64,000 nt of DNA from Escherichia coli (GCF_003334385.1 NZ_QOWN01000024.1); one strand, 5' to 3'. Positions 291 to 54,692 are shown, numbered from the stretch's first letter. Notes: generated from the letters alone by a model not told the origin. Program-made: numbers and translations.

Positions 291-535
291 ATAGAGCGAG
301 GACGCTAACAGGAACAATGACTCAGGATGAGGGTCAGGAGCGCCAGGAGGCGAAGACAGAGGATTGTCAGGAAGACAAACGTCCGGAGACGTAATTAAAC
401 GGAAATGGAATCAACACGGATTGTTCCGGCTAATGGAAAAACAGGGTGTGTTGGCGGCCTGCAAGGATTGTAAGACCCGTTAAGGGTTATGAGTCAGGAA
501 AAAAGGCGACAGAGTAATCTGTCGCCTTTTTTCTT
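291..535 (+). ncRNA. csrC: CsrC small RNA (CsrA-sequestering)
   Basis: About 245 nt upstream of yihI with many GGA/AGGA motifs (caggatga, caggagcg, caggagg, caggaag, ccggaga) and a terminal hairpin ggcgacagagtaatctgtcgcc plus T-run at 505-532. Position between yihA and yihI matches K-12. 5' end approximate. Confidence 0.75.
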
Positions 536-601
536 TGCTTGCTTTCTGTTAGATTCCGCCGCAAATCTATACTGAATAAAACGGCTAAAAGACGAACCAT
601 T

Positions 602-2737: not shown

Positions 2738-2866
2738 GCCTGATGCGCTGGGCAACAAAACCTGTTGAAATTATTGCTTTTGTAGGCCGGATAAGGCGTT
2801 TACGCCGCATCAGGCATCTGAGCATGATGCCTGATGCGGCGCTGGTCGCGTCTTATCAGGCCTACG
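2738..2866. repeat. REP/BIME palindromic element cluster
   Basis: gtaggccggataaggcgtttacgccgcatcaggc and inverted copy gcctgatgcggcgctggtcgcgtcttatcaggcctac downstream of hemN. Confidence 0.8.
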
Positions 2867-7454: not shown

Positions 7455-7512
7455 ACGTTGCACCAATATAGTGCTTCAATGGAAACATTAAGCACCATGT
7501 TGGTGCAATGAC
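7455..7512 (-). promoter_or_regulatory. NtrC enhancer binding sites upstream of glnA
   Basis: Palindromic GCACCAtgtTGGTGC at about 7495-7509 and TGCACCAatataGTGC at about 7459-7474, roughly -140 and -108 relative to glnAp2. Confidence 0.7.
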
Positions 7513-7658
7513 CTTTGGATAACCCTTTTTATGCTCCGTGAAAGCGATCACAAAGGGACTCTGCAATACTTGTTTGCGGAGGATGTTTGTGATCCTGTTT
7601 TGTAGTGCGATTAATCCGTGTACAATAACGCGCTATTTCTAATGCCTGAGGCAAAGTT

Positions 7659-9482
7659 GTGATCGAAAAATTGCGTAATATCGCCATCATCGCGCACGTA
7701 GACCATGGTAAAACTACCCTGGTAGACAAGCTGCTCCAACAATCCGGTACGTTCGACTCTCGTGCCGAAACCCAAGAGCGCGTGATGGACTCCAACGATT
7801 TGGAGAAAGAGCGTGGGATTACCATCCTCGCGAAAAACACCGCTATCAAATGGAATGATTACCGTATCAACATCGTTGATACCCCGGGGCACGCCGACTT
7901 CGGTGGTGAAGTTGAACGTGTAATGTCCATGGTAGACTCAGTGCTGCTGGTGGTTGACGCATTTGACGGCCCGATGCCGCAAACGCGCTTCGTAACCAAA
8001 AAAGCGTTTGCTTACGGCCTGAAGCCGATTGTTGTTATCAACAAAGTTGACCGCCCTGGCGCGCGTCCTGATTGGGTTGTGGATCAGGTATTCGATCTGT
8101 TCGTTAACCTCGACGCGACCGACGAGCAGCTGGACTTCCCGATCGTTTACGCTTCTGCGCTGAACGGTATCGCGGGTCTGGACCACGAAGATATGGCGGA
8201 AGACATGACCCCGCTGTACCAGGCGATTGTTGACCACGTTCCTGCGCCGGACGTTGACCTTGACGGTCCGTTCCAGATGCAGATTTCTCAGCTCGATTAC
8301 AACAGCTATGTTGGCGTTATCGGCATTGGCCGCATCAAGCGCGGTAAAGTGAAGCCGAACCAGCAGGTCACTATCATCGATAGCGAAGGCAAAACCCGCA
8401 ACGCGAAAGTCGGTAAAGTGCTGGGCCACCTCGGTCTGGAACGTATCGAAACCGACCTGGCGGAAGCTGGCGATATCGTGGCGATCACGGGCCTGGGCGA
8501 ACTGAACATTTCTGACACCGTTTGCGACACGCAAAACGTTGAAGCGCTGCCGGCACTCTCCGTTGATGAGCCGACCGTTTCTATGTTCTTCTGCGTTAAC
8601 ACCTCGCCGTTCTGCGGTAAAGAAGGTAAGTTCGTAACGTCTCGTCAGATCCTGGATCGTCTGAACAAAGAACTGGTACACAACGTTGCGCTGCGCGTAG
8701 AAGAAACCGAAGACGCCGATGCGTTCCGCGTTTCTGGTCGTGGCGAACTGCACCTGTCTGTTCTGATCGAAAACATGCGTCGTGAAGGTTTCGAACTGGC
8801 GGTATCCCGTCCGAAAGTAATCTTCCGTGAAATCGACGGTCGTAAACAAGAGCCGTATGAAAACGTGACGCTGGACGTTGAAGAACAGCATCAGGGTTCT
8901 GTGATGCAGGCGCTGGGCGAACGTAAAGGCGACCTGAAAAACATGAATCCAGACGGTAAAGGCCGCGTACGTCTCGACTACGTGATCCCAAGCCGTGGTC
9001 TGATTGGCTTCCGTTCTGAGTTCATGACCATGACTTCCGGTACTGGTCTGCTGTACTCCACCTTCAGCCACTACGACGACGTACGTCCGGGTGAAGTGGG
9101 CCAGCGTCAGAACGGCGTACTGATCTCTAACGGTCAGGGTAAAGCGGTCGCGTTCGCGCTGTTCGGTCTGCAGGATCGCGGTAAGCTGTTCCTCGGTCAC
9201 GGTGCAGAAGTTTACGAAGGTCAGATTATCGGTATTCATAGCCGCTCTAACGACCTGACGGTAAACTGCCTGACCGGTAAGAAACTGACCAACATGCGTG
9301 CTTCCGGTACTGACGAAGCCGTTGTTCTGGTTCCGCCTATCCGCATGACTCTGGAACAAGCTCTGGAGTTCATCGATGATGACGAACTGGTAGAAGTGAC
9401 TCCAACCTCTATCCGTATTCGTAAACGTCACCTGACGGAAAACGATCGTCGTCGCGCTAACCGCGCACCGAAAGACGATTAA
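7659..9482 (+). CDS. typA: ribosome-associated translational GTPase BipA/TypA
   Basis: 607-aa ORF with GTG start; [27 protein letters not shown]-domain motifs [18 protein letters not shown]. Confidence 0.97.
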
Positions 9483-9499
9483 TTTCGTTTTTTAGTTAT

Positions 9500-9532
9500 A
9501 AAAAACCTGCCATCGCTGGCAGGTTTTTTTTT
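9500..9532 (+). terminator. rho-independent terminator after typA
   Basis: Hairpin cctgccatcgctggcagg followed by a T9 run. Confidence 0.8.
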
Positions 9533-9698
9533 ACCTGTCGTGAGCGCACACCAATGCGAGTATCTCCCTTATAAGTCTGTGATTACGTCAATAGAGAGCT
9601 TTGTCACAATTATCTGCAAAGTCATACACCGTTAATTGCTTTCTTTTTTGGCGTAAGCGTAAGATGCTTCATCTGGTTTAAACCAAAAGGATTAAACA

Positions 9699-32795: not shown

Positions 32796-35700
32796 TTACA
32801 CCTTTTCCACATTCACAAGGAAGGACTTAAACTCCGGCGTCTGCGTGTTCGCATCACCAACGAATGGCGTTAAAGTATTGGCAATAAAGCCTTTTTTAGC
32901 TACGCCTTCATAGCCCCAGTGAATCGGAATACCGATGGTATCGATATCTTTGCCGTTCGCTTTCAGCGTGCGAATACGTTTGGTCACCACCGCTTTGGCT
33001 TTGATATAGCCACGGTTGGAGGAGACTTTCACGGTATCGCCCTGGGCAATGCCAAGTTTATTCGCCAGCGACTCCCCGATTTCCACAAACTGCTCTGGCT
33101 GCAAAATCGCGTTCAACAGCGCGTGTTTGGTCCAGTAGTGGAAGTGCTCGGTCAGACGATAGGTGGTTCCGACATACGGGAACTTATCGGCTTTACCCAA
33201 TGCTTCGGCGTCGTCTTTAAAGATACGTGCAGCCGGGTTCGAGATAACGTTTGGATGCAGCGGGTTAGTTCCCAGCGGCGTTTCAAACGGCTCGTAGTGT
33301 TCCGGGAACGGACCTTCCGCCATCTTATCGAGGGCAAACAGACGCCCCATGCCTTCCTGCTGCATGATAAACGGCCCGACGCCGCTACCCGGAGGCGCTG
33401 CGCTGTAGTCCGGAATATCCCAGCCGGTCCACTTAGTGCCGTCCCATTTCAGCAACTGACGCTTCGGATCCCACGGGTTACCCTGCGGATCTGCGGAGGC
33501 GCGGTTATACAGAATGCGGCGGTTAAGCGGCCATGCCCATGCCCAGCCCAGCGTGTTACCGAGGCCAGACGGATCGGCGTTATCACGGCGTGCCATCTGG
33601 TTGCCTTCCGGCGTCCAGCTACCGGCGAAAATCCAGCAGCCACAGGAGGTTGTACCGTCATCGCGCAATTGGGCGAACGAACTAAGTTGTTGGCCTTTCT
33701 TGACGATAACCGCACCGGTTGCCGGATCGGTAATATCGGCCAGCGCCTTACCGTTGCTCTCCATCGCCACTTCTTCTGAAGATGGCTCATGCGGAATGGC
33801 GTAGTTCCATGTCATGTTCAGCACCTGGTCCGGGTTCGCGCCACCCCGTTCGGCATACATCTTGCGCAAGCGCAGGAAGATACCGGAGAGGATCTCGCCG
33901 TCAGTCAGCGCAATCCCCGGGGCGTCCGCACCTTTCCAGTGCCACTGTAACCAGCGACCTGAGTTAACGATAGAACCGTTCTCTTCCGCGAAGCAGGTCG
34001 ATGGCAGACGGAACACTTCGGTCTGGATCTTCGACGAGTCAACTTCGTTCAGCTCACCGTGGTTCTGCCAGAAGTTAGAGGTTTCAGTGTTCAGTGGGTC
34101 GATGGTGACGAGGAACTTCAGTTTCGACAGACAACCGATCACTTTGTTTTTGTTCGGGAATGAGGCAACAGGGTTAAAGCCCTGGCAGATATAGCCATTG
34201 ACCTTGCCCTCTTTCATCATCTCGAAGTATTGCAGGACGTCGTAGCCTTTATCCCACTTCGGCAACCAGTCAAAGCCCCAGCTATTTTCCGCCGTCGCTT
34301 TATCACCAAAGAAGGCCTTCATCATAGAGACGAAGAATTTCGGGTAGTTGCCCCAGTAGTTTACCTGGCCTTCCAGCAGCGGTTTTGGCGTGTTGGCGGT
34401 AAGGTAGGTTTGCAGATCGGTCTGCTTCTCGCTTGGCAGCGTCATGTAACCTGGCAGGCTCTGCGACAGCAGCCCCAGGTCCGTCAGCCCCTGAATATTG
34501 GAGTGACCGCGCAGGGCGTTAACGCCGCCGCCTGCCATCCCCATATTGCCGAGCAGCAGCTGGATCATCGCCATCGTACGAATGTTTTGCGCACCAACGG
34601 AGTGTTGCGTCCAGCCGAGGGCATACAGGAACGAGGCAGTTTTATCGTGAGCACTGGTTTCTGCGATGTATTCGCAGACTTTCAGGAACGCGTCTTTTGG
34701 CGTACCACAGATGTTTTCAACCACATCTGGCGTGTAGCGGGAAACGTGCTGTTTCAGCAAGTTCCACACGCAGCGCGGATGTTGCAGCGTGGTATCGCGT
34801 TTGGCGAAGCCGTTTTCGTCCAGTTCATAAGTCCAGGAGGATTTATCGTACTTGCGTTTTTCCGCGTCGTAGCCGGTGAACAGGCCATCTTCAAAGCCGT
34901 AATCCTCACGCACGATCAGGCTGGCGTTGGTATAGGCTTCGGTGTATTCGCGGTTGAATTTTTCATTGTTCAGCAGGTACAGCAATACGCCTGACAGGAA
35001 AGCAATGTCAGTACCGGAACGAATAGGGGCATAGTAGTCAGCTACCGCCGCCGTACGCGTAAAGCGAGGATCGATCACAATCAGTTTCGCGCCGTTGTGA
35101 ATTTTGGCTTCCATCGCCCAGCGGAACCCGACCGGGTGAGCTTCAGCGGCGTTACCGCCCATCACCACGACGAGGTTGGCGTTCTTGATGTCGACCCAGT
35201 GGTTGGTCATCGCACCGCGACCAAATGTTGGAGCAAGACTTGCTACCGTTGGTCCGTGTCAGACACGCGCCTGGTTGTCGACCGCGAGCATACCCAGCGC
35301 GCGGGAGAATTTTTGCGTTAAATAGCCGGTTTCGTTACTCGACGCGGAAGCACACAGCATCCCGGTGGAGAGCCAGCGGTTAACAGTCACGCCTTCGGCG
35401 TTTTGCGCAATGTAGTTAGCATCGCGGTCTTCTTTCATCAGTTTGGCGATGCGATCAAACGCCTCTTCCCAACTGATTTGCTGCCATTTATCAGAACCTG
35501 GCGCACGGTATTCCGGAAACTTCAGACGGCTTTCGGAGTGGATGAAATCCACCAGGCCAGCGCCTTTCGGACAAAGTGCACCGCGGTTGACCGGGTGATC
35601 CGGATCGCCTTCGATATGGAAGATAGATGCTTTGGCGTTTTTTGCTCCGTCACCGAGGCTGTACATCAACAGCCCACAGCCTACGGAACAATAGGTGCAG

Positions 35701-35846
35701 GTATTACGGGTTTCGCGGGTGCGCAGCAGTTTATACTGCCGGGTTTCCGCGAGTGCTACGCTGGGTGCAAAACCCAGTGCCGCTGCCGTGGTGCCTGCCA
35801 TACCGCCAGCGCAGATCTTAAAGAACTGCCTTCTGCTGACCTGCAT
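32796..35846 (-). CDS. fdoG: formate dehydrogenase-O catalytic subunit (selenocysteine, molybdopterin)
   Basis: ORFs 35259..35846 (Tat signal MQVSRRQFFKICAGGMAGTTAAALGFAPSVALA) and 32796..35210 lie in one frame, joined across in-frame TGA at 35259-35261 (..ARV-U-HGPTVASLAPTFGRGAMTNHW..); 1016 codons total. Confidence 0.93.
35211..35261 (-). other. in-frame UGA selenocysteine codon and adjacent SECIS region of fdoG
   Basis: TGA (plus-strand tca at 35259-35261) within continuous FdoG coding sequence; bacterial SECIS hairpin expected immediately 3' on the mRNA. Confidence 0.7.
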
Positions 35847-36039
35847 GGATTGCTCCTTGTTTCGACATTGTCACGTCCCATTTACATTCGCTTGCTGCGT
35901 GTGCAGGGAGTGGGAGTTATTTTTCTTTGCGGAAGGGGCCGCAAAGGTCCAGAATTGGCTCAATTTCCCTCCATCCAGGAAGGGTTTGTAACAGAATACC
36001 ATAATGTTGGTGTGTGTGTTCTTATCTGGTTAAGAGAAA

Positions 36040-36873
36040 GTGAAAAAAACACAGCGAAAAGAAATCGAAAATGTGACAAATATCACAGGTGTTCGTCAAA
36101 TTGAGTTATGGCGGCGTGATGATTTACAACACCCACGGTTAGATGAGGTCGCGGAAGAAGTTCCCGTTGCGCTGGTCTACAACGGCATTTCGCATGTGGT
36201 GATGATGGCGTCGCCCAAAGACCTTGAGTACTTTGCGCTCGGTTTTTCGCTTTCCGAGGGGATTATCGAAAGTCCGCGCGATATCTTCGGCATGGATGTC
36301 GTTCCTTCCTGTAATGGTCTTGAAGTACAAATTGAGCTTTCCAGCCGCCGCTTTATGGGGTTGAAGGAGCGCCGCCGGGCGCTGGCGGGACGTACGGGCT
36401 GTGGCGTATGCGGCGTGGAGCAACTTAATGACATCGGAAAACCGGTGCAGCCGCTACCGTTCACCCAGACGTTTGATCTCAACAAACTGGATGATGCATT
36501 ACGTCATCTCAACGATTTTCAGCCAGTGGGGCAACTGACTGGTTGTACTCACGCCGCTGCCTGGATGTTGCCATCTGGCGAACTGGTCGGCGGGCATGAA
36601 GACGTGGGTCGCCATGTGGCGCTGGACAAACTGTTAGGCCGCCGGTCACAAGAAGGGGAAAGCTGGCAGCAAGGTGCGGTACTGGTTTCCAGTCGTGCCA
36701 GTTATGAAATGGTGCAAAAGTCGGCGATGTGCGGCGTAGAGATTTTGTTTGCGGTGTCTGCCGCGACCACGCTTGCTGTAGAAGTGGCTGAGCGCTGTAA
36801 TCTGACACTGGTAGGTTTTTGTAAACCGGGTCGGGCAACGGTTTATACCCATCCGCAGCGTTTGAGCAATTAA
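36040..36873 (+). CDS. fdhD: sulfurtransferase FdhD (formate dehydrogenase maturation)
   Basis: 277-aa ORF with GTG start [26 protein letters not shown]; divergent from fdoG. Confidence 0.93.
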
Positions 36874-37025
36874 TTAAAATAAGTCCTGCGAAATATATTA
36901 AATTGCAGGACTTATTCATTTCGTGAATTTTATTATTTTATTTATAAACAAAATGCGTGTAGTGGCGTTTTCTTTTTTCATTTATTATGTTCACTCTCTT
37001 ATCTATATATTTATAAGGCAATTAA

Positions 37026-38081
37026 ATGAAAAGGAATTTATTATCTTCCGCTATTATAGTCGCCATCATGTCCCTCGGTCTGACGGGTTGTGATGATAAA
37101 AAAGCCGAAACAGAAACGCTCCCGCCTGCCAATAGTCAACCTGCCGCACCAGCTCCTGAAGCGAAACCTACTGAAGCTCCCGTTGCAAAAGCAGAAGCTA
37201 AACCTGAAACACCTGCGCAACCGGTGGTCGATGAACAAGCGGTTTTCGACGAAAAAATGGATGTCTATATCAAGTGCTACAACAAGTTACAGATCCCGGT
37301 ACAGCGCAGTCTGGCGCGTTATGCTGACTGGCTGAAAGATTTTAAACAGGGGCCTACCGGTGAAGAGCGTACTGTTTATGGCATCTACGGCATTAGTGAA
37401 TCCAACCTCGCTGAGTGTGAAAAAGGCGTAAAAAGTGCTGTGGCGTTAACGCCTGCGCTGCAACCAATTGATGGCGTGGCGGTGAGTTATATCGATGCTG
37501 CCGTGGCGTTGGGTAATACCATTAACGAAATGGATAAATATTACACCCAGGAAAATTATAAAGACGATGCGTTTGCGAAAGGGAAAACGCTGCACCAGAC
37601 ATTCTTAAAAAATCTGGAAGCCTTTGAACCTGTAGCCGAATCTTATCATGCGGCGATTCAGGAAATTAATGATAAGCGTCAGCTTGCGGAACTGAAAAAT
37701 ATTGAAGAAAGAGAAGGGAAAACATTCCACTACTACTCTCTGGCAGTCATGATTTCAGCGAAACAAATTAATAACCTGATATCGCAAGATAAGTTTGATG
37801 CAGAAGCGGCAATGAAGAAAGTGTCTGAACTGGAAACGCTGGTGGCGCAGGCCAAAGAAGCGGATAAAGGCGGCATGAATTTCTCGTTTATTAATTCGGC
37901 AGGCCAGTATCAACTCGAGGCTAAAAAATACGTTCGCCGCATCAGAGATAAAGTCCCGTACTCTGACTGGGATAAAGAGCAACTTCAGGACGCAAACTCA
38001 AGCTGGATGGTCGAAGACTCTTTCCCGAGAGCATTACGCGAGTACAACGAAATGGTTGATGACTATAATAGCCTGCGTTAA
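37026..38081 (+). CDS. yiiG: putative lipoprotein YiiG (DUF3829)
   Basis: 351-aa ORF; lipobox LTGC after signal peptide MKRNLLSSAIIVAIMSLGLTGC; Pro/Ala-rich linker. Confidence 0.88.
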   Translation: MKRNLLSSAIIVAIMSLGLTGCDDKKAETETLPPANSQPAAPAPEAKPTEAPVAKAEAKPETPAQPVVDEQAVFDEKMDVYIKCYNKLQIPVQRSLARYADWLKDFKQGPTGEERTVYGIYGISESNLAECEKGVKSAVALTPALQPIDGVAVSYIDAAVALGNTINEMDKYYTQENYKDDAFAKGKTLHQTFLKNLEAFEPVAESYHAAIQEINDKRQLAELKNIEEREGKTFHYYSLAVMISAKQINNLISQDKFDAEAAMKKVSELETLVAQAKEADKGGMNFSFINSAGQYQLEAKKYVRRIRDKVPYSDWDKEQLQDANSSWMVEDSFPRALREYNEMVDDYNSLR

Positions 38082-40510: not shown

Positions 40511-40735
40511 ACCCGTAGGCCGGATAAGGCGCTCGCGCCGCATCCGGCAATCAATGCCTGATGCGACGCTGTCGCGTCTTATCAGGCCTACAACTATTGC
40601 CGACCTGTAGGCCGGATAAGGCACTTGTGCCGCATCCGGCAATCAATGCCTGATGCGACGCTGTCGCGTCTTATCAGGCCTACAACTGTTGCCGACCCGT
40701 AGGCCGGATAAGGCGCTCGCGCCGCATCCGGCAGT
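40511..40735. repeat. BIME array: about 2.5 tandem copies of a ~100-bp REP-containing unit
   Basis: Unit gtaggccggataaggcgctcgcgccgcatccggcaatcaatgcctgatgcgacgctgtcgcgtcttatcaggcctacaac(t/a)(a/g)ttgccgac repeated between rhaA stop and rhaD start. Confidence 0.9.
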
Positions 40736-49520: not shown

Positions 49521-49606
49521 TGTAGGCCTGATAAGACGCTATCAGCGTCGCATCAGGCATCCTGCTCAAATGCCTGATGCGGCGTAAACGCCTTATCCTG
49601 CCTGCA
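49521..49606. repeat. REP palindromic elements
   Basis: gtaggcctgataagacgctatcagcgtcgcatcaggc and gcctgatgcggcgtaaacgccttatcc between convergent yiiM and cpxA. Confidence 0.8.
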
Positions 49607-54584: not shown

Positions 54585-54692
54585 TGCCTGATGCGCTTCG
54601 CTTATCAGGCCTACATGAATTCTGCAATTTATTGAATTTGCAAACTTTTGTAGGCCGGATAAGGCGTTCGCGCCGCATCCGGCATGGACAAA
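54585..54692. repeat. REP palindromic elements
   Basis: atgcctgatgcgcttcgcttatcaggcctac ... gtaggccggataaggcgttcgcgccgcatccggc between pfkA and sbp. Confidence 0.8.

Follow-up and report, generated by a model that had tools for sequence, protein, structure and literature searches.

Three genes for selenopolypeptides have been described in Escherichia coli: fdnG, fdoG and fdhF (PMC4009273). In bacteria, the selenocysteine insertion sequence (SECIS) lies directly 3' of the UGA codon, and the distance from UGA to the apical loop is 16-37 nucleotides (nt) (PMC10778597). The present analysis concerns fdoG and its internal UGA codon within a stretch of 64,000 nt of E. coli DNA (GCF_003334385.1 NZ_QOWN01000024.1), referred to below as the window, in which a mechanical list of open reading frames (ORFs) presents the gene in two parts. 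The results leave little doubt that this is a single gene in which the UGA at codon 196 is decoded as selenocysteine (Sec) by means of a SECIS hairpin located directly 3' of the codon and inside the reading frame. The Sec codon of fdoG, the family of its SECIS and its annotation as one coding sequence (CDS) are already known and can be found in textbooks. The value of the case lies in annotation: where a naive ORF track breaks a selenoprotein gene in two at the UGA, the halves are to be merged rather than called a pseudogene or two genes. A modest addition comes from a set of 81 sequences, in which covariation between synonymous third-codon positions maintains the apical SECIS stem, and a U of the loop stays invariant at a wobble position even though the amino acid encoded there differs between sequences.

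A formate dehydrogenase reading frame interrupted by UGA

The gene and the features of its product were located as follows.

32796..35846, minus strand: fdoG, 1016 codons followed by TAA (translation, comparison with K-12, TIGR01553, PDB entry 1kqf, RefSeq)
35817..35837, minus strand: twin-arginine translocation (Tat) signal motif SRRQFFK, residues 4-10 (regular expression on the translation; N-terminus nearly identical to that of FdnG in 1kqf)
35571..35699, minus strand: 4Fe-4S cysteine motif C50-x2-C53-x3-C57…C92 (motif shared in the alignments with FdnG and FdhF)
35259..35261, minus strand: UGA codon 196, predicted to be recoded as selenocysteine (aligns with Sec196 of FdnG and Sec140 of FdhF)

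The mechanical ORF list holds two minus-strand ORFs in this region, one of 195 amino acids (aa; 35259..35846) and one of 804 aa (32796..35210). Their starts share a frame, as both (35846-35261)%3 and (35846-35210)%3 equal 0, and translation of the minus strand over 32796..35846 yielded a sole internal stop, the TGA of codon 196 at 35259-35261, with TAA at the end. The count of codons is 195, plus one for the UGA, plus 16 (35211..35258), plus 804, giving 1016, and the peptide over the junction reads LAVDNQARV-U-HGPTVASLAPTFGRGAMTNHW. The split into two ORFs results from mechanical ORF calling and is artefactual, since the supposed start of the 804-aa ORF, the ATG at 35208-35210, is merely the internal Met213, and there is one gene.

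When compared with fdoG of E. coli K-12 MG1655 (b3894, NP_418330.1, 4082772..4085822), the CDS differs by 2 nt and 1 aa. At codon 667 (window position 33847, minus strand; CDS nt 2000, G versus A) the window encodes Arg and MG1655 Gln, and the remaining difference, at CDS nt 762, is synonymous. A 3155-nt region including the gene showed 100% identity with many complete E. coli chromosomes and was found in 5426 of 5426 complete genomes. To the protein level, searches with TIGR01553 and against the PDB were carried out on the full-length translation with Cys substituted at residue 196. TIGR01553 matched with 1574.1 bits (cutoff 814.2), unbroken over residues 2-1015, and PDB 1kqf_A (FdnG) aligned over residues 1-1015, with the X that stands for Sec in 1kqf opposite residue 196. 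In a BLASTP comparison with FdhF (E 2e-50), residue 196 was found opposite Sec140 within the shared motif ARV-U-HGP(S/T)VA, and is followed directly by His197. Judged by these comparisons, the gene is E. coli fdoG, and its predicted product is the alpha subunit of the respiratory formate dehydrogenase-O, i.e., the catalytic subunit with selenocysteine and a molybdenum bis-molybdopterin guanine dinucleotide (bis-MGD) cofactor.

A single 3051-nt CDS across the TGA is already annotated in the K-12 record and in the RefSeq record of strain 203740, produced by the Prokaryotic Genome Annotation Pipeline (PGAP). The fdoG region of this strain matches the window at 100% identity. The first-pass annotation of the window had placed the 195-aa and 804-aa ORFs in one frame interrupted by the TGA at 35259-35261, which the frame arithmetic and the translation bear out. 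It had further claimed a formate dehydrogenase peptide continuous across the stop, in agreement with the one-stretch match to TIGR01553 and the 1kqf alignment. Its assignment of the TGA as the selenocysteine site of formate dehydrogenase-O agrees with the position opposite Sec196 of FdnG and Sec140 of FdhF, and the single CDS of 1016 codons that it proposed is annotated likewise in the K-12 and PGAP RefSeq records.

The naming of the gene differs between records. In all PGAP-annotated E. coli records listed, the gene at the fdo locus carries the name 'fdnG: formate dehydrogenase-N subunit alpha', whereas the K-12 record names it fdoG. The PGAP label arises because the NCBIfam equivalog TIGR01553 is common to both paralogues, and searches by gene name therefore conflate fdoG and fdnG.

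The SECIS element and its conservation across species

The region 30000..38000 was scanned with Rfam models at a permissive threshold, and SECIS_3 was recovered again when the whole window was scanned at gathering thresholds. Two features were obtained.

35206..35264, minus strand: SECIS_3 (RF01989), bacterial SECIS inside the CDS (84.3 bits versus gathering 63, E 1.8e-19, model positions 1-59 of 59)
35230..35247, minus strand: apical stem-loop, the predicted SelB-binding part (alignment columns 18-35, RNAalifold)

The interval 35211..35261, i.e., the UGA and the 48 nt 3' of it, overlaps 51 of the 59 nt of the SECIS_3 match. SECIS_2 was also considered as the family of the fdoG element and was rejected, as the 28.1 bits obtained fall short of its gathering score of 70.

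The Rfam model and the minimum free energy (MFE) structure from ViennaRNA agree on the fold, which consists of a lower stem, an apical stem with one bulged U and a loop of 3 nt. Numbered from the U of UGA, as is done for SECIS bases, the bulged U17 lies at 35245 and the loop G23-U24-C25 at 35237..35239. With 19 nt between the A of UGA and the loop, the spacing falls within the bacterial range of 16-37 nt. In the fdhF prototype, the bulged U and the GU of the loop are reportedly the bases contacted by SelB, according to work from the Böck and Engelberg-Kulka laboratories.

For a comparison across species, the pattern CARGCNCGNGTNTGACAYGGNCC was scanned over one genome per species, which returned at least 120 loci from Gamma-, Beta- and Alphaproteobacteria, Acidobacteriota, Desulfovibrionales and one metagenome-assembled genome of an actinomycete. 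All of these at least 120 loci listed show the QARV-UGA-HGP context, which the pattern requires, and continue with homologous peptide in frame. The matches listed comprised 81 distinct 60-mers, which were aligned without gaps. With the Rfam structure imposed, 89.5% of cells in this alignment were paired, as opposed to 28-49% when the 3' partners were slid by 1-3 columns, and changes on both sides occurred in 63 cells, compared with 21 ± 4 in shuffles. The apical helix (columns 18-25 with 29-35) was paired in 95.6% of cells and displayed double compensatory changes in four of its seven pairs. RNAalifold, to which no structure was supplied, returned the same apical stem of 5 bp and the 3-nt loop.

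Two of the pairs connect positions at which the protein sequence is indifferent to the base. Pair 21:33 joins the third position of a Val codon with the third position of an Ala codon (GC 59, AU 10, CG 5, GU 3), and pair 24:30 the third position of Ala with that of Leu (AU 43, CG 30, GC 4). By this alignment, the changes at 21:33 and 24:30 are covariation between synonymous sites, which selection on the protein cannot explain. In addition, U24 (column 27) was T in 81 of 81 distinct sequences listed; it occupies a third codon position, and the residue encoded there is Ser in 48, Gly in 29 and Ala in 4 of them. In a set of 82 sequences, U17 and U24 were invariant and G23 was conserved to at least 90%. 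The pattern of substitutions shows that selection acts at the RNA level on the apical stem-loop. Invariance of the loop U across phyla, at a position where a change would be silent, argues for recognition of the base itself and not of a generic structure.

The first-pass annotation had also placed a SECIS directly 3' of the UGA, a claim with which the score of 84.3 bits against 63 on SECIS_3 and the covariation of the apical stem are in accord. As checks it had proposed a fold of the region 3' of the UGA and an alignment to FdnG and FdhF around the Sec residue. The former gave the hairpin with bulged U17 and the G23-U24-C25 loop, with an energy z of only -0.77, and the latter placed residue 196 opposite Sec in both proteins.

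By analogy with the established E. coli sel system, we infer SelB binding, Sec insertion and competition with release factor 2 (RF2) at this codon. The apical stem-loop would bind the complex SelB·GTP·Sec-tRNA(Sec) as the ribosome approaches, and the tethered SelB would deliver Sec to the UGA, outcompeting RF2. The hairpin would then be unwound and translated as residues 197-212, and Sec196 would become a ligand of the molybdenum in the bis-MGD cofactor, the role that Sec has in the solved structure of the paralogue FdnG. The sel machinery itself is assumed to be present in the source genome on the basis of its species identity as E. coli.

The block shared with fdnG and other explanations

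The SECIS of fdoG lies within a block that is shared exactly with the paralogue.

35194..35264, minus strand: block of 71 nt, 100% identical between fdoG and fdnG (longest exact run between the paralogues)

The run extends from CDS nt 583 to 653, and the next longest run is 36 nt. Overall, fdoG and fdnG are 74.9% identical at the nt level and use the same codon at 58% of identical amino acids. Over 20 codons counted from the UGA, identity extends to 19 of 19 codons capable of synonymous change, for which 0.582^19 gives a probability of about 3e-5 at a pre-specified place. The conservation also extends beyond the two paralogues. The E. coli 60-mer around the UGA, all synonymous sites included, was found base for base in at least 22 loci of at least eight genera of Enterobacterales, the sources among the matches listed being Photorhabdus, Providencia, Citrobacter, Yersinia, Escherichia albertii, Enterobacter, Superficieibacter and Klebsiella. 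Also among the matches listed, several genomes carry two loci each with the identical 60-mer, presumably the two paralogues.

A block of 71 nt that is exact in genes otherwise 74.9% identical might have been produced by recent gene conversion rather than by selection on an RNA element, and the presence of the identical 60-mer in both paralogues of several Enterobacterales would fit such an event. However, the block, with its start 3 nt ahead of the UGA, takes in the SECIS model, conversion within one genome leaves the identity of the 60-mer across at least eight genera unexplained, and in more distant species the stem is preserved through compensatory changes. We therefore regard conversion in place of RNA-level selection as improbable. 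Conversion may contribute to the identity of the paralogues alongside a function as SECIS, as the two are not exclusive.

The identity of the 60-mer within the Enterobacterales exceeds what the SECIS covariation in distant taxa would require. That the extreme conservation of the block reflects more than coding and SelB binding, such as recurrent conversion or a second RNA function, e.g., the coupling of both mRNAs to a limited pool of SelB, is a speculation to which we attach little weight, and the data do not call for an additional cause.

Several results weigh against decoding of codon 196 as Sec through a SECIS. The sequence bears on incorporation of selenium at this position only indirectly. 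The thermodynamic stability of the 59-nt stretch is unremarkable, with an MFE of -17.4 kcal/mol and 39 of 200 shuffles folding at least as well; in view of the z of only -0.77, the MFE was left out of the evidence, and the covariance model, the covariation and the conservation at synonymous sites were used instead. The lower helix is less well supported than the apical one, as it showed no double compensatory changes in the alignment of the 81 sequences and was paired in 84.8% of cells; conservation of this helix as a structure is claimed only as far as the Rfam model itself encodes it. Finally, a search for the gene of tRNA-Sec (selC) found no tRNA gene in the window, and selA, selB, selC and selD lie outside it.

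Some of these points would equally suit a UGA that is read by another tRNA, i.e., a near-cognate tRNA for Trp or Cys, or a hairpin that serves ribosome pausing or mRNA stability instead of SelB, given that the sequence by itself does not tell which amino acid is inserted and that the energy of the hairpin is unremarkable. But the bulged U, the GU of the loop and the spacing are those of the fdhF SECIS, the element matches a model that was built from selenoprotein genes, and the loop U, although at a synonymous site, does not vary across phyla. Moreover, FdoG has been reported as a selenopolypeptide (PMC4009273). Another tRNA or another function of the hairpin is thus very unlikely, and decoding as Sec remains the preferred reading.

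The ORF list could also be taken at face value, as two genes, of which one would encode a 195-aa Fe-S protein with a Tat signal, terminated by the UGA, and the other an 804-aa protein that starts at the ATG 35208-35210. An ATG is indeed present 16 codons past the UGA. Termination by RF2 at UGA competes with Sec insertion, so that some truncated by-product of 195 aa is plausible. However, the 16 codons that separate UGA and ATG (HGPTVASLAPTFGRGA) are conserved coding sequence and align without gaps to FdnG and FdhF, the family model crosses the junction in one stretch, and the FdnG chain is continuous in 1kqf. In addition, Met213 is kept as a conserved internal residue (GAMTNHW) in all 81 distinct sequences among the matches listed. 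The chance that two genes are present is accordingly minute. The same negligible standing is given to a pseudogene, in which the TGA would be a nonsense mutation or a sequencing error: mechanical ORF calling does show a stop that splits the frame, but this is excluded by conservation of the codon across phyla and throughout E. coli. The 80 nt that surround the TGA recur in every complete E. coli genome (5426 of 5426), at least 120 loci of other species continue in frame past the UGA, the homologous codon is likewise TGA in fdnG and fdhF, and the match to a curated SECIS model exceeds its threshold.

The fdo locus and its relation to described systems

The genes next to fdoG were assigned as follows.

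31881..32783, minus strand: fdoH, Fe-S beta subunit (NCBIfam TIGR01582, 478.7 bits; RefSeq agrees)
31249..31884, minus strand: fdoI, cytochrome b556 gamma subunit (NCBIfam NF007924, 453.3 bits; RefSeq agrees)
30323..31252, minus strand: fdhE, formate dehydrogenase accessory protein (NCBIfam NF002925, 604.5 bits; RefSeq agrees)
36040..36873, plus strand: fdhD, accessory sulfurtransferase, divergent (NCBIfam TIGR00129, 340 bits; RefSeq agrees)

The NCBIfam models for fdoG, fdoH, fdoI, fdhE and fdhD all scored above their cutoffs, and the gamma subunit reached 453 bits on the FdoI model NF007924 as opposed to 244 bits on the FdnI model. The locus is fdo, with the operon fdoGHI-fdhE, rather than fdn, as fdoH, fdoI and fdhE come next, fdhD is divergent, and the alpha subunit gene is nearly identical to b3894. 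On the minus strand, 4 nt (ATGA) are shared by the stop codon of fdoH and the start codon of fdoI (31881..31884), and likewise by those of fdoI and fdhE (31249..31252), an arrangement typical of translational coupling.

Upstream, a sub-threshold match to FdoG1_thermometer (RF02778, an RNA thermometer of the fdoG 5' untranslated region) was obtained at 35817..36053 on the minus strand (36.4 bits, E 2.7e-6), covering the 5' untranslated region of fdoG and its first codons. This stretch may be a diverged homologue; at 36.4 bits it lies below the gathering score of 50 and is not claimed as an identified element.

Further observations concern the remainder of the window. The gene yiiG (37026..38081, plus strand) is intact and encodes 351 aa; the annotation of strain 203740 gives it an internal stop and calls it a pseudogene. 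Rfam matches above gathering score were the CsrC small RNA (sRNA) at 291..544 (plus strand, 277.9 bits) and the ES222 sRNA at 7470..7577 (plus strand, 135.3 bits), and a match to STnc370 at 9467..9535 (plus strand) barely exceeded its gathering score of 54 with 54.9 bits. Repeats of the repetitive extragenic palindromic (REP) type, scored by Rfam as naRNA4/ES036, occur at 2785..2862, 40518..40588 and 40610..40680 on the plus strand and at 49525..49602 and 54607..54648 on the minus strand. Those at 40518 and 40610 form a tandem pair, and weaker sub-threshold copies are found at 30038..30177, just 3' of fdhE.

Among the described systems, the fdhF SECIS (SECIS_2, RF01988) is the dissected prototype. 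It shares with the element in the window the TGA at the homologous codon and a hairpin directly 3' of it, and it folded alike, with the bulged U17 and the loop G23/U24 at the positions found here. It differs in its stem sequence and in its loop, which has 4 nt (GGUC) in fdhF and 3 nt in the window, and it belongs to another family, as fdhF scored 87.1 bits on SECIS_2 and 35.8 bits on SECIS_3. The FdhF protein is also the more distant relative, with 715 aa, a cytoplasmic location, no Tat signal and 26% identity to FdoG of the window. Much closer is E. coli fdnG (b1474; PDB 1kqf), which has 77% aa identity, the UGA at codon 196, a SECIS_3 match of the same 84.3 bits, and both the Tat and the Fe-S motifs. 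Yet fdnG belongs to a different locus (fdnGHI, nitrate-inducible) and has 1015 codons, whereas the gene in the window adjoins fdoH, fdoI, fdhE and fdhD. The closest counterpart is fdoG of E. coli K-12, which agrees in its length of 3051 nt and 1016 codons, in the UGA at codon 196, in an identical SECIS, in the operon and in the neighbouring genes, and differs in residue 667, which is Q in MG1655 and R in the window.

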